40,000 bases of DNA from an uncultured Acidobacteriaceae bacterium (GTDB taxonomy: Bacteria; Acidobacteriota; Terriglobia; Terriglobales; Acidobacteriaceae). The notes under the pieces were generated by a model. The model ran no database searches and was not told where the DNA came from. It saw nothing but the letters and a program-made list of their open reading frames with translations. A program made the position numbers and the translations under genes. Positions 9,607-35,977 of the stretch are shown one piece after another (the first letter of the stretch is position 1; each line of letters starts with the position of its first letter). Location: the NCBI GenBank assembly GCA_963773645.1, contig CAVZBV010000002.1:1242600-1282599 (forward strand), written 5' to 3'.

Positions 9607-9620
9607 CATCCTTCGTTGAC
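9607..9620 (+). repeat. direct repeat copy 1 of CATCCTTCGTTGAC (putative target-site duplication)
   Basis: Identical 14-mer at 9607, 21542 and 35964, all in the same orientation and each abutting a TIR end. One extra upstream C is shared, so 15 bp is possible. Confidence 0.8.
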
Positions 9621-9718
9621 GGGTTTGTGTATGGCGACGGCAAAAGTGCTACACCCCCCACACGGGAACTTTGGACCCTGGGGCCGGGGCCCGCGCGCTG
9701 GCGAGTGGGGCGGGCGGG
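9621..9718 (+). repeat. left terminal inverted repeat of element A (98 bp)
   Basis: GGGTTTGTGTATGGCGACGGCAAAAGTGCTACACCCCCCACACGGGAACTTTGGACCCTGGGGCCGGGGCCCGCGCGCTGGCGAGTGGGGCGGGCGGG is the exact reverse complement of 21444-21541 (compared by eye, base by base). Confidence 0.85.
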
Positions 9719-9822
9719 GAGCCTTCTATTTGCCATTTAGATGCCAACTGAAAGGACTTGTCGCCTTGCCTTTTGACACATGGCAGCGCCAAGCAGCATG
9801 ATACCGTAATCTGCAAGACTAC

Positions 9823-11790
9823 ATGGATAACAACGAGCAGAGCACGACCCAAACTCTGACTGTCACGGAAATCCTCAAAGGTTCCGACTACTCCCTGACC
9901 ATCTTCACCGACCAAGAAGTCAAAGCGATCAAGCTTTTCGACAGGGGTGGGAAGCCCTATCTCACTTGCGCCGCGAGCGACAAGGCCCGGCCTGCCAAGC
10001 CGGAGGAGATCGTCCGTCAGCTGTACTTGCGCAAGCTGATGAGCATTTATGGGTATCCGAAAGACCGGATCGCCATAGAAAAGCCCGTATATTTTGGCTC
10101 CGCTGTACACGAGAAGGCAGCCGACATCGTGGTTTGGGAAAAGGATGCGCCCACCACGCCCTACATCATCGTCGAAGTCAAGAAACCAAAGCGCAAGGAC
10201 GGCCTGGAACAACTGAAGAGCTATTGCAATGCCGAAGGCTCACCAATTGGCGTGTGGACGAACGGCAGCGAGACAATCGCTCTCCACCGCGAAGAACCTA
10301 ATATTTTTCGCAATCTGCCGGACATTCCAACGGCAACGCAGCACCTTGCGGAGATGCTTGCCGAGCGATGGACGCTTGAGGACCTAGAGAAACACAACAA
10401 GCTAGTCACCGAGCGCCGGACGCTTAAGAGCGTCATTCTCGACATGGAGAACCTGGTTCTCGCCAACGCCGGTGTCGATGCTTTCGACGAGGTATTCAAG
10501 CTCGTTTATGCAAAGCTCTTCGACGAGTGGCAGGCGGCACGCGGCGGCAAGACGAAACGCTATCTCGAATTTCGCATCGGCGGCTCAACGGCTCGGGAGT
10601 TTTCGGAGAAGGTGGATACGCTTTTCAAGAGAGCTATGGAGCAATGGCCCGGAGTGTTCCCGGAAGGCGAGCGTGTTGACCTTGAACCGGACCATTTGAA
10701 GGTGTGTGGTTCGTTTCTCGAAGACATCAAGTTGTTCAACTCGAATTTGCAGGTGATTGACGAGGCTTTCGAATACCTCTCCATTAAGGCGGCGAAGGGC
10801 GAGAAAGGTCAATATTTCACGCCACGGCACGTCATCGATATGTGCGTGAAGATGCTCAATCCCGCCATCGACGACTACGTGGTCGATACTGCTGCTGGTT
10901 CTTGCGGCTTCACGGTGCACAGCATATTCCACGTGTGGGGCGATGTCTTCACGGCAAAGGGTCCCGAGAAGTGGCAATCCGACTACGCCTCCAGCCACGT
11001 CTACGGCCTCGACTTCGACCCCCGCTCCGTAAAGATTGCGCGTGCCCTCAACCTGATAGCAGGTGACGGAAGAACCAATGTCTATCGTGCGAACACGCTG
11101 GACCCACGGATGTGGAGTGAAGAAGTCCGCGTCGGATTGAAGCCTCGCCTCCGCCGCTTCCCGAAGGATGCGGAACGCGATGGCTGGAACCGCGAGCATT
11201 ACCGGTATTTCGACTTCGACGTGCTGCTTACAAATCCACCCTTCGCGGGCGACATCAAGGACAGCCGTATCATTCACCAGTACGACATTGCGAAGAACGG
11301 AAGAGGAAGATGGGAAGGCCGCATCGGGCGAGATATTCTTTTCATCGAACGCAACCTTGAATTTCTCAAACCAGGCGGACGCGCTGCCATCGTTCTACCG
11401 CAAGGCCGTTTCAACAATTCCGGTGACGAGGCTATCCGGCGCTGGATTGCCGAACGGGCGCGCATTCTCGCCGTGGTCGGACTTCAACAAAACACCTTCA
11501 AGCCGCATACAGGTACGAAAACCAGCGTGCTCTTCTTGCAGACGTGGAACGACGATAAGAACTCCTCAACCTACAACCCAAGGCTAGAGAACTACCCAGT
11601 GTTTCTCGCCACAAGCCTTAATTCCGGCAAGGACAACTCGGGTGAGTATCAATACCGGCTTGGCCCTGATAATGCCCCTCTGCTCGATGAGCACGGACAT
11701 ATGGTTGTGAACCACGACCTCGACGAGATTGCGGAAGGATTCTTGAAATGGGCGCGAAAACAGAAGATGCAGTTCGCTGAGGGTTCTTAA
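9823..11790 (+). CDS. hsdM: type I-like restriction-modification N6-adenine DNA methyltransferase (HsdM) with an N-terminal HsdR_N/restriction-endonuclease-like domain
   Basis: Motif I VVDTAAGSCGF, motif IV LLTNPPFAG, and QYFTPRHVIDMCVKML typical of N6_Mtase. The N-terminal ~170 aa include DIVVWEKD...YIIVEVKKPK (PD-(D/E)xK-like, as in the HsdR N-terminal domain). The stop TAA abuts the hsdS ATG (11788-11793). Confidence 0.85.
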   Translation: MDNNEQSTTQTLTVTEILKGSDYSLTIFTDQEVKAIKLFDRGGKPYLTCAASDKARPAKPEEIVRQLYLRKLMSIYGYPKDRIAIEKPVYFGSAVHEKAADIVVWEKDAPTTPYIIVEVKKPKRKDGLEQLKSYCNAEGSPIGVWTNGSETIALHREEPNIFRNLPDIPTATQHLAEMLAERWTLEDLEKHNKLVTERRTLKSVILDMENLVLANAGVDAFDEVFKLVYAKLFDEWQAARGGKTKRYLEFRIGGSTAREFSEKVDTLFKRAMEQWPGVFPEGERVDLEPDHLKVCGSFLEDIKLFNSNLQVIDEAFEYLSIKAAKGEKGQYFTPRHVIDMCVKMLNPAIDDYVVDTAAGSCGFTVHSIFHVWGDVFTAKGPEKWQSDYASSHVYGLDFDPRSVKIARALNLIAGDGRTNVYRANTLDPRMWSEEVRVGLKPRLRRFPKDAERDGWNREHYRYFDFDVLLTNPPFAGDIKDSRIIHQYDIAKNGRGRWEGRIGRDILFIERNLEFLKPGGRAAIVLPQGRFNNSGDEAIRRWIAERARILAVVGLQQNTFKPHTGTKTSVLFLQTWNDDKNSSTYNPRLENYPVFLATSLNSGKDNSGEYQYRLGPDNAPLLDEHGHMVVNHDLDEIAEGFLKWARKQKMQFAEGS

Positions 11791-12901
11791 ATGGCCGTGT
11801 GGAGTAGCGTCGAAGTTGACAGTTTATCTAAGGATTTCAGGCTCGATGCCGAGCACTACCAGCCTGAATACTTGGCGCAAGAGCGAGCGACCAACAAGCG
11901 GAGGAGCGTGGAACTCCAAACTATCGCGTTTGTGTCTGATGGAAACCACCTGAGCATAGCTGAGGAGTTTTCAGAATCCGGCGTTCGATATCTTCGCGGC
12001 CAAGACCTTTCCGACTTCTTCGTCTCTGATGCCGATCCGATCTATATTCCCGAGAAGATTTACCGGACCCTGCCCCGCTCTCACATGCTCGCAGGGGATG
12101 TCCTTGTTGGCATTGTGGGCACCATAGGCAGCGTTGGACTGGTCACGAAGCGCCACGGAAATCTCACAGGTAACTGTAAACTTGCAATCATCCGCGCTCG
12201 GTCTCTCCCAGCCGAGTACATAGCCGCGTATTTGACCTCGCGCATCGGGCAGAACGAGATTCAACGCCGTATACGTGGTGCGGTTCAAATGGGTCTTATC
12301 CTTCCCGACCTGAAGGCACTGCCCATCGTTGTGCCGACCGACAAAGAACGTGAGACTATCGTCAGCCTCGTGAGGGGTGCTGAGGTCAGTCGTGAGCGCT
12401 CCCGTAAGCTGGTAGCAGAAGCAGAAAGTTTACTCCTAGATTCCATCGGGCTGTCCGATGTCAGTTTTTCAAAGAACTTCCTCTACGAGCGTCAGTTCAG
12501 CGAGCTTTCTGCTGCAAGCCGAATGGACGCTGAGTACTTCTCGCCGCGCTATCAAACGGCGCTGGCGATCCTCGGACAACAGGGGCGCACCATTGGCGAT
12601 GTCGCGAACCTCGCGCAGCGGCGTTTTCAGTCCGAGGCTCTCAAGGGTTGCGGTACCTTCCAATACATTGAAATCGGTTCCTTGCAGGGAGATGGTCTAG
12701 CAGATGCCGAAACGATAAGTGTTTCCGAAGCGCCTAGCCGCGCCCAATGGATTGTGGAGCCAAATGACATTATTACGTCAACCGTCCGACCTATTCGACG
12801 GCTCTCCGCGATGATCTCTGCCCAGCAAGCTGGTTACGTGTGTTCATCAGGTTTTGCCGTGCTGGAACCCAAGTTGGGATCGAGTGGCATTGAACCGGAA
12901 T
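11791..12901 (+). pseudogene. hsdS: restriction-modification specificity subunit (HsdS), 3'-truncated by an IS3-family insertion
   Basis: Two target-recognition-domain-like halves (DAEHYQPEY... and MDAEYFSPRY...). The second half breaks off at ...GFAVLEPKLGSSGIEPEL. From 12902 the ORF reads into IS sequence (SGCTPA*, a string also seen in spurious ORFs of the other IS copies). Confidence 0.8.
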
Positions 12902-13639
12902 TGTCCGGATGCACTCCCGCTTGAGCGACTTATGCCAGCGTTCGATCTTCCCGTTCGACTGCGGGTAAAACGGCGAAGTGCGCACGTGCGTCATCCCCGA
13001 GATGCGAATGAACTCCTTGAAGTCGCGCGCGATGAACTGCGGTCCGTTGTCGGAGATTATCCGCGGCCTGGCTTCCGGGTACTTTTCCTTGGCTCGTTCC
13101 AGAATCATCTCAATGTCGGCTTCCTTCATCGACTCCCGCAAATCCCAATGCACCAGAAAACGACTGTATCCATCCAGCACACTGCATAAGTAATAGAACG
13201 TGCCCGACAGGTTGATATAGGAAACATCGACGTGCCAGTGCTGGTGCGGCTGCAGCGGCTGTTCGAAGCCGGTCCCCTTGCGCGACGGCTTCGGTTTCCA
13301 GCGCGAGAGGAGTCCCGCTTGTTTCAACACTCGCCATACGCTCGCCGGACTCACGGCCACCACATCGTGATCTAACATCATGAACGTAAGTCGCCGATAA
13401 CCTTCCAATGGATTCTTCAGGTGGAAGCCGATGATGGCTTCCTTCTCCCACGGCTCCAGCCAAAAATCTCGGGGCACCCAACCGTTGTGCTCATTCGCCC
13501 GACCATAGCGCTGCCGCCAGTTGTAGAACTTACTCGCAGTGACGCCCAGCCAATGAATGAATCGGCCGGCGCTGATCTCGGTCTTCTGCGACCAGCGCCG
13601 GACGAAATCCACCACCTGATCCCGCACATCGTGCGGCAC
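12902..13639 (-). pseudogene. IS3-family transposase OrfB, C-terminally truncated
   Basis: Identical to the 343-aa OrfB up to ...KSLKRECIRT, then reads into antisense hsdS sequence. It retains all three DDE residues but lacks the C-terminal ~100 aa. Confidence 0.85.
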
Positions 13640-13650
13640 CCAGGTCTCGG

Positions 13651-13965
13651 TCAGAGTTCCCCAAGGCTTTTTTTTAACGCGATGTGCTCCGCCATCAGCT
13701 CGGCCAGGACCTCGTCCTTGGTCTGCACCTTCTTCTCCAAGAACTCAATCCGCTTCTGCTTCTCCTCCGCCTGACGGCGAGGACGTTCCGGTGTTTGGAA
13801 GGCGGCCGCTCCGTTCTCGAAAAACTCTTTCTGCCAGCGGTAGAAAACCGTGGGTTGTAGCCCCAGTTCTTCACACAGATCGGAAACCGGGACCTTGTCC
13901 AAAAGATGGCGCCGTAGAACCGCCACTTTTTCCTCAGCAGTGTAGTGCTTGCGCTCTTTTTTCAT
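13651..13965 (-). CDS. IS3-family transposase OrfA (HTH)
   Basis: 104 aa, identical to the OrfA of the other two copies. HTH_Tnp_1-like, with leucine-zipper-like C-terminus. Confidence 0.9.
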   Translation of the reverse strand: MKKERKHYTAEEKVAVLRRHLLDKVPVSDLCEELGLQPTVFYRWQKEFFENGAAAFQTPERPRRQAEEKQKRIEFLEKKVQTKDEVLAELMAEHIALKKSLGEL

Positions 13966-14327
13966 ACGTTCGCTCCGCTATCTTAACGGACGAACGCTTT
14001 CTCCATTTCCAACTGAGGCGGGACAATAATGACATCCTGCCAGTGCGGACCATGTACAACGAGGTCACGCAGAATATCGGGAACAACTATCTCACGTCTG
14101 AGACGCCGATTTGGGTCGCTGGTCCCGATCTGATTGCGTCCGTAATCCGAACCGGCAAAGTGCCGCACATCATCCGGGCTATCCGCATGGTGCCGCACGG
14201 CAAGCAAGCTGGAATGCGAAGTGTAAACCTACGTGGCATGGTTGAAATTGATCCGTATGGGGATGATTTATTTTGCAAAACTATCGAACAGCGAAAACTG
14301 CACAAATCGGACTACGCCCTTTATTAC

Positions 14328-15626
14328 GGGAATTCCGACTTTGTAGTGGGTGACGATCTCGGGATGCGACAATCTGGGGATGCAAGATCGTGAACTGTAC
14401 CGACAGATTCTAGGGATTGAAGCGCCCTGGTTTGTAGAGCGAGTGGAACTAAAGCTGACCGAGGGCGAAGTACACATCTATCTGGAGCACGGAGAGATGG
14501 CGAGTTGGCCGTGCCCAGAATGCGAAGCGAGTTGCCAGTTGTATGACCATCAAGGGGAGCGGCAGTGGCGGCATCTGGACACCTGCCAATATCAGACGAT
14601 TCTGCATGCCCGGCCACCGCGCACCGAGTGCGCCGAGCATGGCGTACGGGTTCTGAAGTTGCGGTGGGCGGAGCCCTCGAGCCGATTCACCGCACTGATG
14701 GAACGGCTGGTGATTGACTGGCTGAGAGCGGCGAGTCAGAAAGCAGTGGGCGAACAGTTGGGACTGAGCTGGGACGAAATTCACGGGATCATGGAGCGGG
14801 CGGTGGCGCGGGGCTTGGAACGGAGGCAGGCCGAGCCTTTGCCACAGCTGGGAGTCGACGAGAAGGCGTTTCGGAAAGGGCACAAGTATTTCACGCTGGT
14901 GAATGACCTGGAGCGGTCCCGTGTGCTGTACGTGGCCGAAGATCGCACTCAGGCCAGCTTAGATGGATTCTGGCAGACCCTGACGGAAGGGCAGCGCGAG
15001 AGTATCGAGGCCATCGCCATGGACATGTGGGATCCCTACGTAGCTTCGGTTCGCGAGCATCTGCGGGAAGGGAGCCAAAAGATCGTCTACGACAAATTTC
15101 ATATCGCCAAACATCTGGGCGATGCCGTGGACAAAGTACGGCGCCAGGAAAACCGCACGCTGCGAGCGGCCGGCGATGACCGACTGACGGGAACACGCTA
15201 CGACTGGTTGCGGAATCCGACCGCCATGGAACCGGCCGATCGCAAAGCCTTTGCCGCGTTACGTCAGAGTGGGCTGAAGACGGCACGGGCTTGGGCTCTG
15301 AAAGAAACCGCCATGGCATTTTTCAGTTACCAATACGAGCGACCCGCGCGGAAACATTTTCGCTGGTGGCACGGCTGGGCCGTACGCAGTCGGCTGCGCC
15401 CCATGCTGGAGGTAGCCAGGACTTTGAAGCGACGCTTCGAGAACATCCTTACCTATCTCCGCCACCGCGTCACCAACGCTGCCAGCGAATCCATCAACGC
15501 CAAGATCCAGTGGGTCAAGTACACCGCACGCGGCTTCCGCAATAAGAAGAACTTCGCAGCTGCAATCCTCTTCCACTGCGGCGGTCTGGACCTGGCTCCT
15601 TAAGCCACTAAAATGCCGGAAGAGCC
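14328..15626 (+). mobile_element. ISL3-family insertion sequence with 8-bp target duplication
   Basis: Imperfect IRs GGGAATTCCGACTTTGTAGTGGG (14328-) and the reverse complement of the right end, GGCTCTTCCGGCATTTTAGTGGC (ends 15626). Flanked by TTTATTAC at 14320-14327 and 15627-15634. Confidence 0.85.
14380..15603 (+). CDS. ISL3-family transposase
   Basis: MQDRELYRQILGIEAPWFVERVEL... N-terminus, Zn-finger CPECEASC, and DDE_Tnp_ISL3-like body (GVDEKAFRKGHKYFTLV...AMDMWDPY...TNAASESINAKIQ). A GTG at 14350 is an alternative start. Confidence 0.88.
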   Translation: MQDRELYRQILGIEAPWFVERVELKLTEGEVHIYLEHGEMASWPCPECEASCQLYDHQGERQWRHLDTCQYQTILHARPPRTECAEHGVRVLKLRWAEPSSRFTALMERLVIDWLRAASQKAVGEQLGLSWDEIHGIMERAVARGLERRQAEPLPQLGVDEKAFRKGHKYFTLVNDLERSRVLYVAEDRTQASLDGFWQTLTEGQRESIEAIAMDMWDPYVASVREHLREGSQKIVYDKFHIAKHLGDAVDKVRRQENRTLRAAGDDRLTGTRYDWLRNPTAMEPADRKAFAALRQSGLKTARAWALKETAMAFFSYQYERPARKHFRWWHGWAVRSRLRPMLEVARTLKRRFENILTYLRHRVTNAASESINAKIQWVKYTARGFRNKKNFAAAILFHCGGLDLAP

Positions 15627-16176
15627 TTTATTACTGGCTTAAGATTTTTGCAAACTCCATTTATGGTTTTTTTGTTGAATTAAATCCAGAACGGAAAAAG
15701 AACAACGTACCTGTCAAGGTTTTTTCAGGAGACAAGAACTTCCCCGATGATTCGGACGTGATTGAAAATCCTGGACCGTGGTTTTTTCCACCTTTGGCCT
15801 CGCTCATCACATCTGGCGGACGCCTATTGCTCGCCATGACGGAAGCGTGTGTGGAAGCCAAGAAGGGCACGTATCTATTTTGTGACACAGATTCACTTGC
15901 AATCGTGGCCTCCAAGAAAGGTGGGTTGCTGCGCATTCCGGGCAGCAAAGGAATCCGGATTCTCTCGTGGGCTGAAGCGAAGAAAATCGCTGACAAATTC
16001 GCTGCGCTGAATCCTTACAACCGCAAGATCGTGAAAGGTTCAATTCTGAATCTTGTGGACGCGAACTATGTTGACTCGGACTCCAAGAACCCGCAGCGCC
16101 AGTTGTACGGGTACAGTGTCCCGCCTCAGTTGGAAATGGAGAAAGCGTTCGTCCGTTAAGATAGCGGAGCGAACGT

Positions 16177-16491
16177 ATGAAAAAAGAGCGCAAGCACTAC
16201 ACTGCTGAGGAAAAAGTGGCGGTTCTACGGCGCCATCTTTTGGACAAGGTCCCGGTTTCCGATCTGTGTGAAGAACTGGGGCTACAACCCACGGTTTTCT
16301 ACCGCTGGCAGAAAGAGTTTTTCGAGAACGGAGCGGCCGCCTTCCAAACACCGGAACGTCCTCGCCGTCAGGCGGAGGAGAAGCAGAAGCGGATTGAGTT
16401 CTTGGAGAAGAAGGTGCAGACCAAGGACGAGGTCCTGGCCGAGCTGATGGCGGAGCACATCGCGTTAAAAAAAAGCCTTGGGGAACTCTGA
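16177..16491 (+). CDS. IS3-family transposase OrfA
   Basis: 104-aa HTH protein, identical in all three copies. Confidence 0.9.
   Translation: MKKERKHYTAEEKVAVLRRHLLDKVPVSDLCEELGLQPTVFYRWQKEFFENGAAAFQTPERPRRQAEEKQKRIEFLEKKVQTKDEVLAELMAEHIALKKSLGEL
16468..16475 (+). other. A7G slippery site for programmed -1 ribosomal frameshift (OrfA to OrfAB)
   Basis: TTAAAAAAAAG near the end of orfA. orfB (frame -1 relative to orfA) is open across it. This is the canonical IS3-family arrangement. The equivalent sites are 20313-20320 (- strand) and in the truncated copy. Confidence 0.75.
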
Positions 16492-16502
16492 CCGAGACCT
16501 GG

Positions 16503-17534
16503 GTGCCGCACGATGTGCGGGATCAGGTGGTGGATTTCGTCCGGCGCTGGTCGCAGAAGACCGAGATCAGCGCCGGCCGATTCATTCATTGGCTGGGCGT
16601 CACTGCGAGTAAGTTCTACAACTGGCGGCAGCGCTATGGTCGGGCGAATGAGCACAACGGTTGGGTGCCCCGAGATTTTTGGCTGGAGCCGTGGGAGAAG
16701 GAAGCCATCATCGGCTTCCACCTGAAGAATCCATTGGAAGGTTATCGGCGACTTACGTTCATGATGTTAGATCACGATGTGGTGGCCGTGAGTCCGGCGA
16801 GCGTATGGCGAGTGTTGAAACAAGCGGGACTCCTCTCGCGCTGGAAACCGAAGCCGTCGCGCAAGGGGACCGGCTTCGAACAGCCGCTGCAGCCGCACCA
16901 GCACTGGCACGTCGATGTTTCCTATATCAACCTGTCGGGCACGTTCTATTACTTATGCAGTGTGCTGGATGGATACAGTCGTTTTCTGGTGCATTGGGAT
17001 TTGCGGGAGTCGATGAAGGAAGCCGACATTGAGATGATTCTGGAACGAGCCAAGGAAAAGTACCCGGAAGCCAGGCCGCGGATAATCTCCGACAACGGAC
17101 CGCAGTTCATCGCGCGCGACTTCAAGGAGTTCATTCGCATCTCGGGGATGACGCACGTGCGCACTTCGCCGTTTTACCCGCAGTCGAACGGGAAGATCGA
17201 ACGCTGGCATAAGTCGCTCAAGCGGGAGTGCATCCGGACACTGACTCCGTTAACGCTGGACGATGCACGCCGCTTGATTCAACTCTACGTGGATCACTAC
17301 AACACGATGCGCCTACACAGTGCGATCGGCTATGTGACGCCGCAGGATCGGCTCGCCGGACGACAGGCCGAGATCCACGCGGCTCGCGATCGCAAGTTAG
17401 AAGAAGCTCGTCGCCAGCGGCAACTCCGACGGCAGCAGACGGCGTCTTGGAGGTTTGCACCCTCTTCCACGCCAGCTACAATGACCTCGCCGGGTGAAAC
17501 GGAAGCGGGCTCTGCCGGGAGGCAACCATGCTGA
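16503..17534 (+). CDS. IS3-family transposase OrfB (rve/DDE integrase domain)
   Basis: DDE triad contexts HWHVDVSY, IISDNGPQF, PQSNGKIERWHKSLKRE. 343 aa from the first in-frame start. Probably expressed as an OrfAB fusion. Confidence 0.9.
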   Translation: MPHDVRDQVVDFVRRWSQKTEISAGRFIHWLGVTASKFYNWRQRYGRANEHNGWVPRDFWLEPWEKEAIIGFHLKNPLEGYRRLTFMMLDHDVVAVSPASVWRVLKQAGLLSRWKPKPSRKGTGFEQPLQPHQHWHVDVSYINLSGTFYYLCSVLDGYSRFLVHWDLRESMKEADIEMILERAKEKYPEARPRIISDNGPQFIARDFKEFIRISGMTHVRTSPFYPQSNGKIERWHKSLKRECIRTLTPLTLDDARRLIQLYVDHYNTMRLHSAIGYVTPQDRLAGRQAEIHAARDRKLEEARRQRQLRRQQTASWRFAPSSTPATMTSPGETEAGSAGRQPC

Positions 17535-17850
17535 GGGATAACCTGGTGGGGCTCATCGAGCCGATGCTCAGCAGCGCGGGAGTTGATCCTCTCGCGCTCT
17601 GCATGCGAGGAAAAAGCCATCGGACGATAGACCCCCATGCCTTGAAAATCCCCGCCCCGAAGGGGCGGAATCTACACTAACGGAGAACGCCGCTTCTCCA
17701 TTTCACGCTGAGCCAAGACAAGACTTCTACACTATCAATCCGACGGAGCGCACGAGGTAGACGTGTGTGAACAGTCCCCGCGCCGCTTCGAGAGCCTTGA
17801 GAATGAGTTGCGGTCTGCACGCCAAACAGACCTCAAAGGAGGACACGGAG

Positions 17851-18955: not shown

Positions 18956-18978
18956 AAACAACCTGATTGCGCACAAAA

Positions 18979-19003
18979 GGGCGAGCCCAAACGTGGCTCG
19001 CCC
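18979..19003 (+). terminator. stem-loop after the ABM gene (possible terminator)
   Basis: GGGCGAGCC-CAAACGT-GGCTCGCCC forms a perfect 9-bp stem 24 nt after the stop. There is no clear U-tract. Confidence 0.4.
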
Positions 19004-20285: not shown

Positions 20286-20296
20286 CCAGGTCTCGG

Positions 20297-21645: not shown

Positions 21646-21710
21646 AGGCGAACTGGGCCGGATGTACGAGCGATGGGCGAGTGGGTGAGCGTGGGTGCGA
21701 CGCGGCTTCT

Positions 21711-28632: not shown

Positions 28633-28752
28633 AATTAAAGGGCAAAATCTATCTCGTGTGTCTTGACTGAATCAGAAATAGCCATACCATACATAGTATA
28701 TCACTTGTTCTTGCAGCATACTAGTGCAAGGGCAATTACGGGAGGCACCAAG

Positions 28753-28983
28753 ATGCATCGAGATGAAACCGTACTGGCGGTCGGAATGATTGAAGCTGCG
28801 CGGCGGCTAGGGTTGTCGGCCCGCACCGTGGCGACGCTCGTATCGCGCCGCGAGCTTCCGAGCCGGAAGGTGGGCCGCCGGAGAATCATCCCGGTTGTGG
28901 CCCTAGAAGCTTTCGTCGGGCGTGACCATCTGAACATTCGGCCTGAGCCTTCAGGCAGCGTGGAGAGAACTACCGCAGGGTGA
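28753..28983 (+). CDS. excisionase/MerR-type helix-turn-helix DNA-binding protein
   Basis: MIEAARRLGLSARTVATLVSRRELPSRKVGRRRIIPVVALEAFV matches the HTH_17/Xis-type pattern. GGAGG lies 7 nt upstream of the ATG at 28753 (the ORF track start at 28663 is probably too early). Confidence 0.75.
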   Translation: MHRDETVLAVGMIEAARRLGLSARTVATLVSRRELPSRKVGRRRIIPVVALEAFVGRDHLNIRPEPSGSVERTTAG

Positions 28984-28986
28984 GCC

Positions 28987-29634
28987 ATGCCTTCAAAACG
29001 AAGGCCCCAGGCTCGCCGTGGAAGGAAACCTAGGGCCGGACCAAATTCGATAACTGGCAATAAAATACCACGCTCCAAGCGGGCAAACAAGCCTCGCCGC
29101 CGTGTGCATCGAGATTCCTCGCGTACAGGTCTGATTTCCAATCGTCATCGCGCACCCCGCCCATCCTCTCTTACCGTAGAGCAACTAAAGACGCGCGCGG
29201 ATGTACTGGCTGCGCACTCCGACATGTTGCGTGACCGCAACCTAACGGCGTCCCAAGCCGCTCGGGATAACGGGGTCTCTGTCCGCGATTTCTGGAAATA
29301 CATACCTAAAGCATTCAAAAAGGATTCAAGTGGACGGATTCGCGCTATAGCCGACCGCTATGTGCGAAGGATGGAGATTCCTGGACGGGATGGTCCCATC
29401 TTAATCACGGTCAGAGGGTCCAAAGCTAAGCGTGAATTTGCGCGATTCCGTAATGATGTCTTCAGTTTTCTCGCAGGGAATCGTTCTGCCCTTGACAAAT
29501 GGGACGGCGTAACTATCCAGGGTCATGAATTACTGACGGACCCTCGCATTATCCGAATGCTTGGCGAGCAAGGCAATCTCCCAGAACACTTCGGAAGCGA
29601 GCAAGTCATTCCGTACTCCAGAGGTGCCGCATGA
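28987..29634 (+). CDS. hypothetical protein with a highly basic N-terminus and a possible internal HTH
   Basis: 215 aa. The first ~60 aa are Arg/Lys/Pro-rich. LTASQAARDNGVSVRDFWKYI is HTH-like. The gene overlaps the next one by 4 nt. Confidence 0.6.
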   Translation: MPSKRRPQARRGRKPRAGPNSITGNKIPRSKRANKPRRRVHRDSSRTGLISNRHRAPRPSSLTVEQLKTRADVLAAHSDMLRDRNLTASQAARDNGVSVRDFWKYIPKAFKKDSSGRIRAIADRYVRRMEIPGRDGPILITVRGSKAKREFARFRNDVFSFLAGNRSALDKWDGVTIQGHELLTDPRIIRMLGEQGNLPEHFGSEQVIPYSRGAA

Positions 29635-29924
29635 GACGCTGCAATCTCTGCGGTAGCACTCACAAGGTAACCCAGCATCACGTTGGAGGGCAGAATTTCA
29701 TTGCTTGGTTCACGATGTCGCTCTGCGCTAAGTGTCAACTAATTTTCCACGCGAGACAACGGGCAGCCGGAATAGATCTATGCTCCACACCGAATCCCTT
29801 TCACAGGCTCATCCGTGCGCTAAAGATGACAGTTCTGTTCATGTGGATGTTGCTCGATATGGTCGAAAAGGAGATTGATTCGGACATCGAGAAAGCTAAA
29901 GCTCTGCAGGGGAACTCAAAATGA
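29631..29924 (+). CDS. small HNH-like nuclease/zinc-finger protein
   Basis: CNLCGSTHKVTQHHVGGQN...LCAKCQLIFH fits the CxxC...HH...N...CxxC..H layout of HNH domains. 97 aa with a hydrophobic C-terminal stretch. Confidence 0.6.
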   Translation: MRRCNLCGSTHKVTQHHVGGQNFIAWFTMSLCAKCQLIFHARQRAAGIDLCSTPNPFHRLIRALKMTVLFMWMLLDMVEKEIDSDIEKAKALQGNSK

Positions 29925-29934
29925 GGGATTCGAA

Positions 29935-32900
29935 ATGATCGAAACCCACGATCTCTTCCTGCGCGCCCTTGCCGTGCCTGCAGCAAAAAAGAAGAAAAAG
30001 ACCAAGGATGGCGAAAAGTTCGAGAGCTACGTGGCTGACGAACCGAAGTGGCCAGACACCGTCGTTGCGTTCGATACTGAGAGCCGGATCACAGTAGATC
30101 AGTCGCTGACTTTTGGCGTGTGGCGACGCTGCAAGCTAGTCGGACAGAAATATGAGGTCATCGAAGAGGGGATCTTCCACGCTGATGACTTACCTGCGAA
30201 AGATATCAAAATTCTCGAAACATACATGGAGACGGCGGTCCCCGATGTACGGTCATTCCCTCCCCGCTTCCCGCTCTACTCGCGCTCCAAGTTCATGAAG
30301 AAACTTTTTTGGCCCGCGCTTAAGAAACACGGCGCTATGATCTGTGGACTGAACTTGCCTTATGACTTGAGCAGACTGGCCCTGGATTGGAAGGAAGGGA
30401 ACAAGGGCGAATGGTCACTAATCATGGCCCAATACGCTGATGGAAATGAAAACTGCAATTATCCACGTATTCTCATCACTCCCATTGATAGCAAAAAGGC
30501 GATTATCAAGCTGTGGAGACCTTGGAAAAAGGTTCAGCACGAATGGAAGGACGCGGGCAGGAAGATTCATTTCCTCGATCTGCGAACGCTGCTCTGGGCG
30601 CTTTATAACAAGTCTCACTCGCTCAAGAGTGCCTGTGACAATCGAAATGGCCCGTTCAAAGAACAAGACTTGCCACAAAAGGATGACCACGACCCTACTG
30701 GCGAGGTCATACCTGATGAAATTGAGCACTGCCGTCAGGATGTCCGCTGCACGGTCGCACTACTGAACGCTTGCAAGCGGGAATTCGATAAGCACTCGGA
30801 TATGGACCTGAAGCCGTGGGATGCCTACTCGCCTGCGAGCATGGCCAAGGCCTACCTCAAAGCAATGCGGATTGAAAGGCCTGCGGTTAAGTTTAAGGTG
30901 CCGGACAAGAAAAACGCCATTTGGATGCAATCCTACTTCGGCGGGCGCTCAGAATGCCGAATACGGCACGAAGTTGTTCCCGTCGTTCCAGTCGATTTCA
31001 CTTCCGAGTATCCGTCCTGCTGCGCAAATCTCGGCCTGTTCAAATTTCTCACCGCTAAACGTCTGAAGTTTGTCGATGACACGGCAAACATACAGCGGTT
31101 CGTCACGAACATCACCCACGAACAATGCTTTCAGCGTGGAACGTGGCATGATCTAAATTTTGTGGCCCGCGTGATCCCTGATGGAGACATCCTGCCCGTT
31201 AGGACTGTTTACGACGGTGTAAGTCACAATATCGGCAACAACTATTTATCTGCAAATCCTTCCCACCCAGAACCAGTTTATGTGGCTGGGCCCGACCTGG
31301 TTGCGGCAGTGATTCAGCAACCCGGAAAGATTCCGAACATTCAACAGGCATTCAGGATCGTCCCCTCGGGAAAGCAGCTTGGAATGCGAGCGGTAAGACT
31401 CCGAGGGAGAGTTCTGATCGACCCTAACGATGATCCCGTTGACCTGTTCACAAAAATCATCGAGGAGCGTAAACGCAACAAGAATGATCCCGATCTCTAC
31501 TATTGGCTCAAGATTCTCGCCAATTCAATTTACGGATTTTTCGTGGAACTGATCCCAGAACATTTTAAGCAGCCCAAGGCTGTGATGGTATTTTCTGGTG
31601 ATGAGAGCTTTCCCGATTTCTCCAGTGTGATCGAGCGCCGGGGGAAGTGGTTCGCGCCGTTCTTGGCGACTCTTATTACATCTGCGGGAAGGCTTTTGCT
31701 CTCCTTGCTAGAGGCAGAAGTCACACGGGTAAATGGCACCTATCTATACTGCGACACCGACAGTCTGGCAATTGTGGCATCGAAAAAAGGCGGCGCACTC
31801 CGCATTCCCGGAGCTCAAGACAAGCGCATTTTGACTTTGGATGAGGTTGACGAGATTACCACCAAATTTCAGGCGCTCAATCCGTACAACCCTAATGAAG
31901 TGCCGGACCTGCTAAATCTCACGGACGATAACTACGTTTGCTCGTGTTCGCATGAACTCAAAACCGAGCATGACGAAACCGGAGTTTGTGCGGCGCGCGG
32001 ATGCAAGTGCAAAGCGGGAAAAAAGGTGAGGCGGCAATTGTGGGGTTTGGGTATAGCCGCCAAAAGGTACGCGCTGTTTGAAAGGGTATTGGACAGACGC
32101 GGAAAATTAACAGACATAAGAATCGTCAATCCTAAAGCGCACGGGATCGGTTTCCTGTACCCGCCGAAAGACAAATCGAAAAATTGGAAAAAAGACGCGC
32201 CACTGTGGATTTACGAGATGTGGGATTACATCGTGCGCGGATTCCTGGGATTACCGCGCAAACTACCCGCGTGGGCTTCCCTTCCACAAATGATGCGCTT
32301 CTCCGTATCGACTTGGAACGTGCTCAAAATGCTGGGTATGTGGGAGGGCGCACGTCCCCACAATTTTATGTTCATGGTAATGACCTCCGAGGCGTTTTCG
32401 TTTAACTTCGATTTTGATAACAAACCAAGCAAAAAACCGATGGTGATTGTGCCGTTTTCGAGCAAGCAAGGCGAATGGAGCAAACTCGAAGGGATTGACA
32501 TTCACAATAAGAACCGGCGCGGGAAGTACCGGCGTTACCGGCTGGACGATCCCGATTTTCACCCTTTCACCTACGCGCACATGATTGAGGAATACGTCCG
32601 GCACCCCGAGGCCAAGAGCCCGGGCCCGGACGGGAAGCCCTGCACAGCAGAAACTCGCGGGCTTTTAAAGCGAGCGCACATCACAGCAGGGCAGATTCGC
32701 TATATCGATAAAGAAACATCCTCAATGTGGACGCATGGCGACGATTTCAGTGTAGTCACCGATCATGACGAGACCGGGTTCAGGGTGATCGAGTACGGGA
32801 AAAGCCGAAAAATCGTACTTCCAAACTCGTTGAAACGCGAGATCGAACAAATTAAATTACGCGAGTTGATGCGAAGAGGAATTGGGCAGCACACCATTGA

Positions 32901-32982
32901 AAAAGCGCTGCACACGCATGTACGCGTAAATACCTACAGCAAAATTCTGGCCGCAATCGCGGAATACAACACCGGCACCTAA
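29935..32982 (+). CDS. polB: family B DNA polymerase with 3'-5' exonuclease domain
   Basis: ExoI VVAFDTES, ExoII GLNLPYDLSRL, ExoIII EIEHCRQDV. Motif A VDFTSEYPS, motif B KILANSIYGFF, motif C LYCDTDSLAI, KxY AAKRYALF. The start was chosen at the ATG after GAGGG, downstream of the preceding stop; the ORF track start at 29875 overlaps the HNH gene. Confidence 0.92.
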   Translation: MIETHDLFLRALAVPAAKKKKKTKDGEKFESYVADEPKWPDTVVAFDTESRITVDQSLTFGVWRRCKLVGQKYEVIEEGIFHADDLPAKDIKILETYMETAVPDVRSFPPRFPLYSRSKFMKKLFWPALKKHGAMICGLNLPYDLSRLALDWKEGNKGEWSLIMAQYADGNENCNYPRILITPIDSKKAIIKLWRPWKKVQHEWKDAGRKIHFLDLRTLLWALYNKSHSLKSACDNRNGPFKEQDLPQKDDHDPTGEVIPDEIEHCRQDVRCTVALLNACKREFDKHSDMDLKPWDAYSPASMAKAYLKAMRIERPAVKFKVPDKKNAIWMQSYFGGRSECRIRHEVVPVVPVDFTSEYPSCCANLGLFKFLTAKRLKFVDDTANIQRFVTNITHEQCFQRGTWHDLNFVARVIPDGDILPVRTVYDGVSHNIGNNYLSANPSHPEPVYVAGPDLVAAVIQQPGKIPNIQQAFRIVPSGKQLGMRAVRLRGRVLIDPNDDPVDLFTKIIEERKRNKNDPDLYYWLKILANSIYGFFVELIPEHFKQPKAVMVFSGDESFPDFSSVIERRGKWFAPFLATLITSAGRLLLSLLEAEVTRVNGTYLYCDTDSLAIVASKKGGALRIPGAQDKRILTLDEVDEITTKFQALNPYNPNEVPDLLNLTDDNYVCSCSHELKTEHDETGVCAARGCKCKAGKKVRRQLWGLGIAAKRYALFERVLDRRGKLTDIRIVNPKAHGIGFLYPPKDKSKNWKKDAPLWIYEMWDYIVRGFLGLPRKLPAWASLPQMMRFSVSTWNVLKMLGMWEGARPHNFMFMVMTSEAFSFNFDFDNKPSKKPMVIVPFSSKQGEWSKLEGIDIHNKNRRGKYRRYRLDDPDFHPFTYAHMIEEYVRHPEAKSPGPDGKPCTAETRGLLKRAHITAGQIRYIDKETSSMWTHGDDFSVVTDHDETGFRVIEYGKSRKIVLPNSLKREIEQIKLRELMRRGIGQHTIEKALHTHVRVNTYSKILAAIAEYNTGT

Positions 32983-33071
32983 GCCCGACCTATCGGCACA
33001 GCTTTCAGAGCATCGGCCATGCCTCTTGCTAGGTGTTACCATATTCTCCTTAAGTAGTATTTCAGTAAACC

Positions 33072-35810
33072 GTGAATACGATCCGCTCCACAGACTGGAC
33101 GGCCCACTCAGTCCGTATCGCTGCCTGCGGTCTCGGGGCCGTACTCGGTGGCCCTTTGGGAGGTGTGCTGGGCGGCTGGCTCGGCAATGCCCTGGGACCG
33201 TCGGCAGTCGACCTGATCACTCATTACGCCGAAAAGTTCGGTGAAGGGGCCGCGGTAAAACTGCTCGATCTCGGCGCTGGCTCCTTTGTGCAGGGCTCGG
33301 AGATGGAGATGGGTCCCACGGAGTTAGAAGCTCTCTACCGTGAAACTCTTCAATTCAGTCTTAACGAGCTTTCCACATCAATCTCCGGGAACCGTTATGA
33401 GGACTGGTTCAATCACTGGCAATGCTGCCTTGCATCCAAAGCAAATCTGAATCTCTCTGATGTCACACTGGGCCAGTCAGACAAGGGCAACCCGCATGAC
33501 CAACTTCGTCTGGTCCTGGAAACTCTCGACGCCCAGGGAGCGGCGATGGCGCGGAACGATTTGTCGCTCAACATCACGCTCCGCGCACTTCCAGAAGAAC
33601 TCCTATCCAAACTGATAGCCAAGCTTCCAGAATCCCTCGACAAGAATTTTCGCGCGCTCATTGTTGGATCAAAATACGAAAGGGCATGGAAGGAAAAGTT
33701 GCTGATATTCGAGCGATCCGCTCGGAAAGCGCTCGAAGATATCGATCAAACAACACAGAGAACCGAATCCAAGGTGGACAGGATCGGCGAAGACGCAAAG
33801 GCGATCCGAGAGCTGCTCGAAAAGGAATGGAGAAGCGCGCAACAGCAAGGCCGACTCAGTCCGGAACAGTTGAAGGACAAAGACCAAGAGATCGCACGCC
33901 TGACCGAACAGCTTCGCAAATTGCAGGATGAACTTGCGGCGCGGTCATCCGAGCCGGAAGAAGTCCGCCTGTCGACACTTATTGCGACCGGAGACCTCGC
34001 AGGGGCAATTCGACTGAAATCAAACCAGGTAAACTCGCGCAGAAGCGAGGCACAGATGTTGCCGCGCGATCTCTTCGAACTGGGCAAGCTTCATGAACTG
34101 CGCTTCGATTGGCCCAATGCTTTACGGGCGTACCGTGAAGCATGGGAGCTACGCCAGGACCCGGAATTCGGATTTTCTTACGCCTATTATGCACGGCTAC
34201 AGAATCATTTCACAGAAGCCATCGCGGTATATCAGAATCTCCTTCCGACCTCCCGGAACCCTGCTGATCGCGCGATGACGCTCAACAACATGGCCGTTCT
34301 CTACCGCGAGACGCAGCGGATGAAGGACGCCGAAGCGGCATTCGTTGAGGCGCTGTCGATTCGTCACGAGTTGGCCAAAGCAAACCCGGAGGCCTACCTC
34401 CCGATTGTAGCGATGACGCTCAACAACATGGCCATTCTCTACCGTGACACGCAGCGGATGAAGGACGCCGAAGCGGCATACGGGGAGGCGCTATCGAAGT
34501 ATCGCGAGTTGGCCAAAGCGAACCCGGAGGCCTACCTCCCGGATGTAGCGATGACGCTCAACAACCTGGCCATTCTCTACAGCGACACGCAGCGGATGAA
34601 GGGCGCCGAAGCGGCATTCGGGGAGGCGCTGTCGAAGTATCGCGAGTTGGCCAAAGCGAACCCGGAGGCCTACCTCCCGTATGTAGCGATGACGCTCAAC
34701 AACCTGGCGAATCTCTACCGCGACGCGCAGCGGATGAAGGACGCCGAAGCGGCATTCGGGGAGGCGCTGTCGAATCGTCGCGAGTTGGCCAAAGCGAACC
34801 CGGAAGCCTACCTCCCGGATGTAGCCACGACGCTCAATAACCTGGCCGTTCTCTACAGCGACGCGCAGCGGATGAAGGACGCCGAAGCGGCATACGGGGA
34901 GGCGCTGTCGATTCGTCGCGAGTTGGCCAAAGCGAACCCGGAGGCCTACCTCCCGTATGTAGCCACGACGCTCAATAACCTGGCCGTTCTCTACAGCGAC
35001 GCGCAGCGGATGAAGGACGCCGAAGCGGCATACGGGGAGGCGCTGTCGATTCGTCACGAGTTGGCCAAAGCGAACCCGGAGGCCTACCTCCCGGATGTAG
35101 CCACGACGCTCAACAACCTGGCCGTTCTCTACCGCGAGACGCAGCGGATGAAGGACGCCGAAGCGGCATTCGTTGAGGCGCTGTCGATTCGTCACGAGTT
35201 GGCCAAAGCAAACCCGGAGGCCTACCTCCCGGATGTAGCCACGACGCTCAACAATCTGGCCGTTCTCTACAGCGACACGCAGCGGATGAAGGACGCCGAA
35301 GGGGCATACGGGGAGGCGCTGTCGAAGTATCGCGAGTTGGCCAAAGCGAACCCGGAGGCCTACCTCCGGTATGTAGCGATGACGCTCAACAACCTGGCCG
35401 TTCTCTACAGCGACACGCAGCGGATGAAGGACGCCGAAGGGGCATACGGGGAGGCGCTGTCGAAGTATCGCGAGTTGGCCAAAGCGAACCCGGAGGCCTA
35501 CCTCCCGGATGTAGCCACGACGCTCAACGACTTGGCGAATCTCTACCGCGACGTGCAGCGGATGAAGGACGCCGAGAGCTGCTGCTTGGAGGCGAGCGCT
35601 ATTCTTGAGCCTCTGTGGCAGGCCAATCTAGAAGTGCACGGCGACCAGTTCGCCAGGATTCTGTTGACTCAGGCTCTACTCTGTGAGCTGGGGGGAAGGT
35701 CTAACACAGAGGCGTGCCGTCTGGCCAGGCGTGCTTTCGATGCTGCATACCAGGCTCAGCTCAAGCACATCGCCCAGGAGATGATAGATAACTTTTGCAG
35801 TAAAACTTGA
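33072..35810 (+). CDS. glycine-zipper N-terminal domain / coiled-coil / TPR-like repeat protein
   Basis: GTG start. N-terminus GLGAVLGGPLGGVLGGWLGNALG (GxxxG zipper). Charged coiled-coil region (about aa 230-300). Then ten 46-aa repeats of the kinesin-light-chain/TPR_10-12 type (TLNNLAVLYxDTQRMKDAEAAYGEALSxxRELAKANPEAYLPDVA). Confidence 0.85.
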   Translation: MNTIRSTDWTAHSVRIAACGLGAVLGGPLGGVLGGWLGNALGPSAVDLITHYAEKFGEGAAVKLLDLGAGSFVQGSEMEMGPTELEALYRETLQFSLNELSTSISGNRYEDWFNHWQCCLASKANLNLSDVTLGQSDKGNPHDQLRLVLETLDAQGAAMARNDLSLNITLRALPEELLSKLIAKLPESLDKNFRALIVGSKYERAWKEKLLIFERSARKALEDIDQTTQRTESKVDRIGEDAKAIRELLEKEWRSAQQQGRLSPEQLKDKDQEIARLTEQLRKLQDELAARSSEPEEVRLSTLIATGDLAGAIRLKSNQVNSRRSEAQMLPRDLFELGKLHELRFDWPNALRAYREAWELRQDPEFGFSYAYYARLQNHFTEAIAVYQNLLPTSRNPADRAMTLNNMAVLYRETQRMKDAEAAFVEALSIRHELAKANPEAYLPIVAMTLNNMAILYRDTQRMKDAEAAYGEALSKYRELAKANPEAYLPDVAMTLNNLAILYSDTQRMKGAEAAFGEALSKYRELAKANPEAYLPYVAMTLNNLANLYRDAQRMKDAEAAFGEALSNRRELAKANPEAYLPDVATTLNNLAVLYSDAQRMKDAEAAYGEALSIRRELAKANPEAYLPYVATTLNNLAVLYSDAQRMKDAEAAYGEALSIRHELAKANPEAYLPDVATTLNNLAVLYRETQRMKDAEAAFVEALSIRHELAKANPEAYLPDVATTLNNLAVLYSDTQRMKDAEGAYGEALSKYRELAKANPEAYLRYVAMTLNNLAVLYSDTQRMKDAEGAYGEALSKYRELAKANPEAYLPDVATTLNDLANLYRDVQRMKDAESCCLEASAILEPLWQANLEVHGDQFARILLTQALLCELGGRSNTEACRLARRAFDAAYQAQLKHIAQEMIDNFCSKT
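34275..35654 (+). repeat. in-frame tandem array: nine near-identical 138-bp units plus one degenerate unit (coding TPR-like repeats)
   Basis: Units start at 34275, 34413 and so on (period 138 nt), with the ninth at 35379 and a degenerate tenth at 35517. Adjacent units differ at only a few nucleotides. Confidence 0.9.
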
Positions 35811-35873
35811 ATTCTGAGGCATCCGTCCCCCCAAGCCGACCCCGCCTGCCCGCTAGCCCCGCACACCCCTCTC

Positions 35874-35963
35874 GCCCCACTCGCTCGCGCGCGGGCCCCG
35901 GCCTCTGGGGTCCAAGTTCCGGGGAGGGGGTGTAGCCGTTTTTCCCGTCGCCACATCCTACCC
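35874..35963 (-). repeat. right terminal inverted repeat of element B (90 bp)
   Basis: Exact reverse complement of 21556-21645. Confidence 0.85.
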
Positions 35964-35977
35964 CATCCTTCGTTGAC
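35964..35977 (+). repeat. direct repeat copy 3 of CATCCTTCGTTGAC
   Basis: Immediately follows the right TIR of B and continues into unique sequence upstream of the kinase gene. Confidence 0.8.

Follow-up and report, generated by a model that had tools for sequence, protein, structure and literature searches.

A probable tandem pair of casposons at one promoter-like target site in an acidobacterial genome

Two elements with long inverted repeats share one 14-bp target

We analysed a 40,000-nucleotide stretch of DNA from an uncultured Acidobacteriaceae bacterium (contig CAVZBV010000002.1, positions 1,242,600 to 1,282,599 of the forward strand), hereafter called the window. Its positions 9607-35977 very probably hold two casposons, that is, transposons with cas1 and polB genes and terminal inverted repeats (TIRs), which inserted successively into one 14-bp target by the mechanism proposed below. 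The CRISPR adaptation module has been proposed to descend from casposons. The ends of the two elements, the copies of their target-site duplication (TSD) and the flanking host genes are listed here; loci and contigs used for comparison carry L numbers.

7524-9542 (+), beta-lactamase-family hydrolase, left flanking host gene (Pfam Beta-lactamase, 1.9e-56; contiguous with the kinase gene in L041 and L042)
9607-9620 (+), TSD copy 1 (CATCCTTCGTTGAC; repeat search and sequence reading)
9621-9718 (+), left TIR of the left (lineage A) casposon, 98 nt, 100% complementary to 21444-21541
21444-21541 (-), right TIR of the left casposon, second arm of that inverted-repeat pair
21542-21555 (+), TSD copy 2, common to both elements
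21556-21645 (+), left TIR of the right (lineage B) casposon, 90 nt, 100% complementary to 35874-35963
35874-35963 (-), right TIR of the right casposon, second arm of that inverted-repeat pair
35964-35977 (+), TSD copy 3, promoter-proximal
36031-38661 (+), Ser/Thr protein kinase with PD40 repeats, right flanking host gene (Pfam Pkinase, 2e-44; PD40)

The sequence CATCCTTCGTTGAC is present in exactly three copies in the window, all on the plus strand. No fourth match was found there even with two mismatches, and none of 100 shuffles reached three matches. Both TIR pairs directly abut the 14-bp copies. The triple direct repeat and the two perfect TIR pairs had been described in an earlier note made from the sequence alone, and our searches returned them base for base. 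The same note held the two TIR families to be related yet diverged, and they are indeed ~80-81% identical over 86-96 nt. The duplication in the window can be read as 14 or 15 bp, because the base preceding copy 1 is also a C; 14 bp is the rule across the family described below.

The target is located in the 131-bp intergenic spacer between the hydrolase and kinase genes. We searched public metagenome contigs for exact matches to the predicted empty junction (the sequence up to 9620 joined to that from 35978) and found two contigs of close relatives, L041 and L042. They are collinear with positions 4599-9620 and 35963-40000 of the window at 93-95% identity and have one copy of the 14 bp. An unoccupied site with a single copy means that both segments of the window are insertions. 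Moreover, the hydrolase and kinase genes are adjacent in L041 and L042, and thus the intervening 26.4 kb was added and the target duplicated. The earlier note had predicted this empty site, and the neighbourhood of the two genes on which its reading depended is found in both contigs. An exact look-up of the hydrolase protein in the contig collection gave no record.

The note had also named a generic family of repetitive extragenic palindromes (REP) or miniature inverted-repeat transposable elements (MITE) as an alternative. In the loci that we retrieved, the TIRs delimit cas1/polB elements or their short derivatives, and a MITE/REP family was rejected.

The right element is intact and encodes a casposase-like Cas1

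The right element (21556-35963, 14.4 kb) is intact. Its B-type terminus, GGGTAGGATGTGGCGACGGGAAAAACGGCTACACCCC, is common to L014, L019, L020 and L032. It contains the following open reading frames (ORFs), with lengths in amino acids (aa) and HTH standing for helix-turn-helix.

22013-23176 (+), trypsin-like serine peptidase, cargo (Pfam Trypsin_2, 1.5e-29)
23340-23780 (+), Rap1a-like immunity protein, cargo (Pfam Rap1a, 2.9e-07)
23899-25392 (-), Sll1717-family P-loop ATPase (STAND/ORC-like), cargo (NCBIfam NF047389, 2.8e-84)
26339-27874 (-), casposase with Cas1 domain, CxxC..CxxC zinc ribbon and C-terminal HTH (Pfam Cas_Cas1, 2.9e-40; NCBIfam cas1)
27871-28632 (-), 253-aa ORF upstream of cas1, outside the family core (homologues only in L022 and L033)
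28987-29924 (+), two small conserved ORFs of 215 and 97 aa, directly upstream of polB
29875-32982 (+), family B DNA polymerase (PolB), 1035 aa, apparently of the protein-primed type (Pfam PF03175, 33 bits against a cutoff of 25.8)
33072-35810 (+), TPR-repeat protein, cargo (Pfam TPR_10 and TPR_12; 9.4 tandem 138-nt units)

The Cas1 protein is 511 aa long. In an alignment with relatives down to 38% identity, residues E235, H255, D267 and E270 are invariant in the family, as are four Cys. Searched against PDB, the profile of the Cas1 family found the Methanosarcina casposase 6opm first (5.2e-35), followed by the Archaeoglobus CRISPR Cas1 (1.8e-34). With the AlphaFold model (predicted local distance difference test score, pLDDT, of 73), Foldseek placed three chains of 6opm first (5.6e-18 to 1.6e-17), the next protein being at 2.5e-15. 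The relationship to casposases that the earlier note had called for is therefore favoured by both profile and fold, 6opm being the best PDB match each time. That it leads the Archaeoglobus CRISPR Cas1 by only a small margin nevertheless speaks against our reading. No cas2, other cas gene, CRISPR array, tRNA gene or Rfam match was found within the 40-kb window.

As the earlier note had it, the right element encodes both Cas1 and a family B polymerase (the latter scoring above the PF03175 cutoff). By each structural criterion testable here, namely Cas1, PolB, TIRs and a 14-bp TSD, it is a casposon; the note had proposed as much from these four features, all of which are present.

Among the other ORFs, the trypsin-like peptidase has an 88% homologue in the same arm of the L004 element. 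The 253-, 215-, 97- and 171-aa ORFs gave no family match in Pfam, NCBIfam or PHROGs. Two tandem repeats were observed in this element. The TPR gene contains, at 34277-35575, 9.4 copies of a 138-nt unit with 92% matches, corresponding to 46-residue repeats that are near-identical at the DNA level. An 18-nt repeat in 2.4-3.2 copies (26153-26206) lies between the 171-aa ORF and the 3' end of cas1.

The polymerase looks to be of the protein-primed type

The polB gene belongs to an operon, orf215-orf97-polB, that is transcribed divergently from cas1. Its product has conserved exonuclease motifs (ExoI, D67xE69; ExoII, N160..D164; ExoIII, ending at D289) and polymerase motifs (A, D374..Y379; B, K546..N550..Y553-G554; C, Y623..D627-T-D629-S; KxY, K730-R-Y732). 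It matches PF03175, which represents the organellar and viral (protein-primed) type, above the curated cutoff, and the Pfam scan gave no match to PF00136 or PF03104, which represent RNA-primed-type PolBs. We then compared it with small reference sets using hhalign, the informative one being a four-sequence protein-primed profile. PolB aligned with this phi29/PRD1/His1/Bam35 profile over 299 columns, from ExoIII to motif C (98.2%, E = 2.9e-14), whereas the profile of Escherichia coli Pol II and T4 gp43 gave 21% over a spurious segment. Alignments with phi29, PRD1, His1 and Bam35 taken singly were weak. On this modest basis of a Pfam match and a profile comparison with small reference sets, PolB looks to be of the protein-primed type.

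Several observations weigh against this assignment. The AlphaFold model of PolB, built with 30 close homologues, is poor (pLDDT of 50), and Foldseek returned from PDB weak, generic matches to family B polymerases and DEDD exonucleases, which we did not use for classification. Because the model and the fold search are uninformative, the protein-primed call depends on the one Pfam match and the one profile comparison. In addition, no terminal protein was identified, the 215- and 97-aa ORFs having no family match. From their position only, these two ORFs are candidates for a terminal protein or replication accessory proteins.

As a single sequence, PolB found no match among the PDB sequences, and as a profile it matched only motif C of Pol alpha. 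Pipolins have a primer-independent PolB (piPolB) with a KTRG-type motif and owe their integration to a tyrosine recombinase acting with direct repeats. A piPolB of this type was considered and rejected, as the KxY motif is canonical, the elements have no tyrosine recombinase and TIRs are present. No similarity was found between the C-termini of PolB and Cas1 that would correspond to the HTH common to both proteins in family 2 casposons.

The left element is a decayed casposon of another lineage

The left element (9621-21541, 11.9 kb) is decayed. Its left TIR starts with GGGTTTGTGTATGGCGACGGCAAAAGTGCTACACCCC, the A-type terminus also present in L002, L008, L030 and L031. The features between its TIRs are as follows, with R-M standing for restriction-modification and IS for insertion sequence.

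9823-11790 (+), type I R-M methyltransferase with an HsdR_N-like N-terminus, cargo (Pfam N6_Mtase, 4e-28; HSDR_N_2, 4e-25; PADLOC MTase_I, 2.9e-234)
11791-12924 (+), type I specificity subunit, cargo (Pfam Methylase_S; PADLOC Specificity_I)
12902-14025 (+), IS3-family copy, 5'-truncated, 1124 of 1604 nt (100% identical to the other two copies; rve integrase domains)
14025-14327 (+), polB remnant part 1, residues 436-543 (tblastn, 57% to the right PolB; 86-89% to the lineage-A PolBs of L001, L030 and L002)
14328-15622 (+), ISL3-family insertion inside polB (transposase 14350-15603, Pfam DDE_Tnp_ISL3, 6.8e-69)
15623-16090 (+), polB remnant part 2, residues 540-694, with motifs B and C (63% to the right PolB; 81-86% to the PolBs of L002, L026 and L001)
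16117-17720 (-), full IS3-family copy, inverted (1604 nt, 100% complementary to 19068-20671)
19068-20671 (+), full IS3-family copy (transposase 19254-20285, -)

No cas1 gene was found in the left element. The polB remnant that the earlier note had recognized spans residues 436-694 in two fragments, which are contiguous across the ISL3 insertion; the latter is flanked by a short direct repeat, CTTTATTAC. The 3' end of the specificity-subunit gene runs into the IS3 copy beginning at 12902. The anatomy of the element suggests that IS-mediated deletions took out cas1 and the remainder of polB. The three IS3 copies bracket the polB remnant and a 1.35-kb segment.

Because the polB fragments are 57-63% identical to the right PolB, compared with 81-89% to loci of the same TIR type, the left element belongs to another PolB/TIR lineage and is not a copy of the right one. 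It is decayed and perhaps also older. The same figures bear on whether the pair could stem from the duplication or rearrangement of a single inserted element instead of two insertions. Recombination and deletion did take place in the left element, as its IS3 copies show. However, the TIRs are 100% identical within each pair and ~81% identical between elements, the polB remnant is closer to lineage-A PolBs elsewhere than to its neighbour, and the two elements have no cargo in common. Such an origin is thus barely credible, and two insertions remain our reading.

Related elements are found in soil and peat Acidobacteria

A genome scan identified at least 40 loci, all of them in Acidobacteriaceae, Terriglobales or other Acidobacteriota metagenome-assembled genomes. 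More than 120 cluster representatives at ≥71% identity were found for Cas1. The conserved core consists of cas1 divergent from orf215-orf97-polB; apart from cas1 and polB, the loci have no large gene in common, and the pair of small ORFs upstream of polB is kept in most of them. A near-identical copy of the right element (95% for Cas1) is present at the same kinase site in another sample. Both ends could be defined for 22 elements of the scan and for two found later (L052 and L054), and all their TIRs begin with GGG. The TSDs of the 22 elements are 14 bp long, or 15 bp in three cases. Most TIRs share a GA-GGG/CGG block, an A/T tract and GCTACACCCC within their first 40 nt, and distinct TIR types can be told apart.

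With the PolB profile, 5726 representatives of 50%-identity clusters were collected at E ≤ 0.001, including 1540 at E ≤ 1e-30. Both distant relatives that we examined (L043 and L044) have as neighbour a cas1 gene for a protein of 516-527 aa, again in the divergent arrangement; the ends of these elements were not found on their contigs. One of the two also has ParB- and UvrD-like genes. In soil and peat Acidobacteria, the family seems abundant, and this PolB, with its thousands of cluster representatives, is linked to Cas1 in the distant relatives examined as well. To our knowledge, the described casposons number a few dozen and are mostly archaeal, the bacterial ones being called a handful. 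A literature search, with subscription-only papers outside its scope, yielded no paper on casposons with Acidobacteria as hosts or on casposon insertion at promoters. This agrees with the suggestion of the earlier note that an element family in an acidobacterium may be undescribed.

Defence-like genes flank cas1 and polB in several related contigs (L056, 1313-3082 and 11821-13821; L044, 434-3800; L052, 2622-3545). They code for SIR2, an OLD/TOPRIM ATPase, an Mrr-type nuclease and trypsin-like peptidases. Considered along with the R-M and ATPase genes of the window, they suggest that casposons of the acidobacterial family carry defence genes, their cargo status being assumed on L044 and L056, where the element ends are undefined.

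Defence-like cargo is typical of genomic islands, and islands driven by integrases are also flanked by short direct repeats. The 14-bp repeats might accordingly be att sites of an island moved by a conventional recombinase, with Cas1 and PolB as mere cargo or as a degenerate CRISPR adaptation module. We consider this very improbable. Neither element has a gene for a tyrosine or serine recombinase, and the only other transposases are in the IS3 and ISL3 copies, which have ends of their own. Long perfect TIRs abut the repeats directly, and neither cas2 nor a CRISPR array is present. Moreover, cas1 and polB are the sole large genes that the loci have in common. Since the sequence of the repeats varies by locus while their 14-bp length and the TIRs are conserved, the repeats behave as a target duplication and not as an att core.

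The target resembles a promoter whose -35 box is regenerated

With two exceptions among more than 24 elements, the TSD in the oriented empty sites ends with TTGAC, and its other nine bases vary freely. The exceptions are L005, with TTTGCC, and L029, which differs. A TAnnnT hexamer is located 17-18 nt beyond the hexamer starting with TTGAC at 8/9 independent target loci, whereas the background rate over all TTGAC sites of these sequences is 5.6% (binomial P = 8e-10). These -10-like hexamers are TAAGAT in the window and at many loci, and TACACT, TAGACT, TATACT or TAAACT at the rest. Two further cases, L052 and L054, were found afterwards.

The next gene always points away from the element and starts 17-160 nt past the TSD. 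It codes for a Ser/Thr kinase in the window, L002, L004, L008, L010, L015, L028 and later L052 and L054, for a ValRS-like protein in L001, L007, L011, L013 and L039, and for a secreted protein in L016, L019 and L020. The remaining genes code for NuoB (L018), LytTR response regulators (L021 and L030), an amidase (L005) and a TPR protein (L031). The corresponding site of the window is the following.

35973-36001 (+), promoter-like site TTGACT-N17-TAAGAT (one found, 0.0 expected; -10-like hexamer 30 nt upstream of the kinase start)

No other TTGAC-N17-19-TAAGAT exists in the 40-kb window, and this one is the site used. The last five bases of the TSD are the first five of the -35 hexamer. Because the TSD contains these five bases, the promoter-proximal copy rebuilds a -35 box beside its -10. 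Thus, the target looks like a sigma-70-type promoter whose -35 box is regenerated by the insertion.

How this pattern arose is less certain. The casposase might read only the TTGAC edge, insertions into genes being lost by selection, so that the survivors would be those at intergenic TTGAC, mostly in -35 boxes. Selection generally acts against the disruption of genes. In line with such a filter, TTGAC is the only (nearly) constant part of the target, the remaining TSD bases and the spacer varying freely. In contrast, elements of different TIR lineages have inserted time and again at kinase and ValRS-like promoters of different genomes, and unrelated loci, L005 and L028 among them, share the uncommon TAAGAT. 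The order is always -35, -10 and then a gene pointing away, and the single TTGAC-N17-19-TAAGAT of the window is the one occupied. Selection as the whole explanation is therefore unlikely, although it deserves some weight. The recurrence of promoters across lineages and that of TAAGAT at unrelated loci favour recognition by the integrase over selection as the probable source of the promoter pattern.

Three points count against integrase recognition of promoters. First, L027 has TTGAC but no -10-like hexamer. Second, several target loci are orthologous or paralogous (the kinase and ValRS-like promoters), and the independent events are for this reason fewer than the elements. Third, the survival of harmless insertions could explain part of the association. 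If promoter recognition is nevertheless true, a promoter target rebuilt by duplication would represent a previously unreported 'safe site' strategy, and it would offer a simple sequence-defined targeting assay.

Arrays are common and may be polar

Arrays such as that of the window are common in the family. L004 has three TSD copies, which delimit a 15.7-kb element (177-15843), a 2.0-kb derivative (15858-17867) and a further element starting at 17882. In OY970265.1 (~2.397-2.437 Mb, L024 and L036), four identical copies of GTCAAACCGGGCGG accompany at least five elements within 39.8 kb. This array includes a 2.8-kb derivative without cas1 and polB genes, and the polB gene of one of its elements is interrupted by ~1.5 kb. 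Tandem casposons separated by a shared TSD are known from Methanosarcina and Methanolobus (PMC4779613, PMC9939771), as the earlier note had stated for archaea. In the tandem pairs of Methanosarcina, one copy is inactivated (PMC4779613).

A neighbouring element abuts the promoter-distal TSD in at least 9/25 cas1-centred elements and the promoter-proximal TSD in only 2/25; these numbers are small and come from a sample biased toward cas1-bearing elements, which tells against a firm polarity. The intact element of the window is the promoter-proximal one, and the decayed element is distal. This order would be consistent with newcomers inserting at the copy that has kept the -10 side next to it. 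New CRISPR spacers likewise enter beside the leader. For the casposases of families 1 and 2, a flanking 'leader' is a requirement (PMC8464041, PMC6614799).

Cas1 and the PolB/TIR module appear to be exchanged

L001, L002 and L004 encode Cas1 proteins at 81-84% identity to that of the right element, and their PolBs share 45-56% with the right PolB. Conversely, the Cas1 of the right element is only 65-67% identical to the Cas1 proteins of L014, L019 and L020, the PolBs of which are at 82%. Such incongruence between pairwise Cas1 and PolB identities was found across the elements (L001-L040 and the window). The TIR type tracks the PolB clade and not the Cas1 lineage. The right element combines a Cas1 of a lineage usual with A- or C-type TIRs with a PolB and a TIR of type B. 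The L004 element has unlike TIRs, of type C on the polB side and of type A on the cas1 side, and it resembles the right element of the window in its cas1 arm. This chimera may be the product of recombination between two array neighbours.

From these patterns we infer that recombination between array neighbours shuffles modules, and that the interior of the TIR probably co-evolves with the replication module as an origin, the integrase needing little beyond the tips. That Cas1 is exchanged and the TIRs go with PolB points to the interior of the TIR as a replication origin and to the tips alone as the integrase substrate.

The association of TIR type with PolB rather than with Cas1 would also be expected of integrated linear plasmids or viruses that replicate by protein priming, lead a mainly extrachromosomal life and use Cas1 only for integration. 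Long TIRs with reiterated GGG ends and a protein-primed PolB are typical of linear plasmids and tectivirus-like genomes, and the acidobacterial elements appear to have both. However, Pfam and PHROGs revealed no gene for a capsid, a packaging ATPase or any other virion component, and a tblastn search with PolB against 50,697 phage genomes gave no match. Each copy examined is chromosomal, with a duplication. We therefore regard a mainly extrachromosomal life as improbable and retain the casposon reading.

Comparison with known systems

Casposons have been classified into families 1-4, and a family 5 from hot springs has been proposed (PMC4046053, PMC4779613, PMC9939771, PMC9755687). Family 1 (Nitrosopumilus; NitSJ-C1 and NitAR1-C1) resembles the acidobacterial elements by its protein-primed-type PolB and its small upstream ORFs, which maybe supply a terminal protein. 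It also has long TIRs, a TSD of 13-15 bp and a sequence-specific integration that depends on a motif in the TSD and on a flanking 'leader' (PMC4046053, PMC8464041). In contrast, family 1 has thaumarchaeal hosts, a compact Cas1 without added domains and the 3' end of the aEF-2 gene as target, whereas the acidobacterial elements have a bacterial host, a Cas1 with zinc ribbon and HTH, a very divergent PolB of ~1035 aa and a promoter-like target.

Family 3 (AceAut-C1, NitAL212-C1, HenMar-C1 and StrAlb-C1) has bacterial hosts and intergenic insertion sites in common with our elements, and the Cas1 of AceAut-C1 shows the same layout, with a C-terminal zinc-binding domain and an HTH (PMC4046053, PMC4779613). 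It differs by an RNA-primed-type PolB derived from family 2 and usually by an HNH nuclease and a conserved HTH protein. Pfam, NCBIfam and PHROGs detected neither an HNH nor a stand-alone HTH protein among the ORFs of the right element, although very divergent versions would escape these searches.

As for family 2 (Methanosarcina, Methanolobus and Aciduliprofundum), the likeness lies in the C-terminal HTH of the casposase, the recognition of leader and TSD and the best structural match, 6opm (PMC4779613, PMC6614799). Its hosts are archaeal, however, its PolB is PolB3-like and its targets are 3' ends of tRNA genes or intergenic sites. Furthermore, the reported arrays of family 2 consist of two elements, compared with at least five at one site in OY970265. 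By the features tested, the acidobacterial elements thus do not seem to fit any described casposon family, the closest being families 1 and 3. They bring together a bacterial host, a PolB apparently of the protein-primed type and a Cas1 with zinc ribbon and HTH, traits that the current scheme keeps apart.

Beyond casposons, CRISPR adaptation by Cas1-Cas2 involves an integrase of the Cas1 fold, a staggered attack and a duplicated target that is regenerated and so gives rise to arrays, and the adjacent flank, which is not duplicated, appears to set polarity (PMC5137440). Unlike it, the acidobacterial elements have no Cas2, CRISPR array or spacers, and the insert is a mobile element of 2-20 kb with TIRs. 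In addition, the promoter adjacent to the acidobacterial arrays reads away from the array, and in CRISPR into it. Tn7-like transposons also reuse one safe site and form tandem islands that include inactivated copies (comparison in PMC4779613), but they rely on a DDE transposase and the target selector TnsD, generate a 5-bp duplication and have their target downstream of glmS.

Proposed mechanism of insertion and array growth

On the basis of these comparisons, the casposase would join the 3'-CCC ends of the TIRs to the two target strands, 14 bp apart, and gap filling would create the 14-bp duplication. Replication by PolB would start at the GGG-reiterated ends of the element, with the product of a gene immediately upstream of polB as the probable primer. 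TTGAC would be the sequence read at one edge of the target, as the -35 of a sigma-70-type promoter with TAnnnT 17-18 nt further on. Because the duplication rebuilds the -35 next to the -10, the downstream gene would keep its core promoter and the site would stay reusable. Repeated use of the rebuilt site would then lead to head-to-tail arrays, probably with a preference for the copy still adjoining the -10 side. It must be set against this scheme that all its statements are drawn from anatomy and homology.

A bolder version is possible, if somewhat doubtful. The integrase would be directed to sigma-70-type promoters and need the -10 side as its leader. Elements would be added only at the promoter-proximal copy, which would make the arrays polar, and Cas1 and PolB/TIR modules would recombine there. 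If true, these polar arrays of repeat, element and repeat would be a living analogue of the leader-repeat architecture proposed as ancestral to CRISPR arrays. In any case, the frequent arrays of several elements beside a fixed flank make the casposon-to-CRISPR scenario directly testable with natural material.

Other sequences of the window

A 70-nt inverted match (81%) links positions 7356-7425 (-) and 36031-36100 (+), the latter being the coding sequence of the kinase N-terminus. The copy at 7356-7425, upstream of the hydrolase gene, is a short fragment with neither a kinase ORF behind it nor an adjacent TTGAC-N17-TAAGAT. Further upstream, positions 667-5463 code for a hybrid sensor kinase of 1598 aa, in which five PAS units are accompanied by HisKA, HATPase, two receiver domains and Hpt. 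Each PAS unit is followed by a conserved ...ITERKRAEE... linker, which appears in the DNA as a 45-nt repeat with a spacing of ~375 nt.

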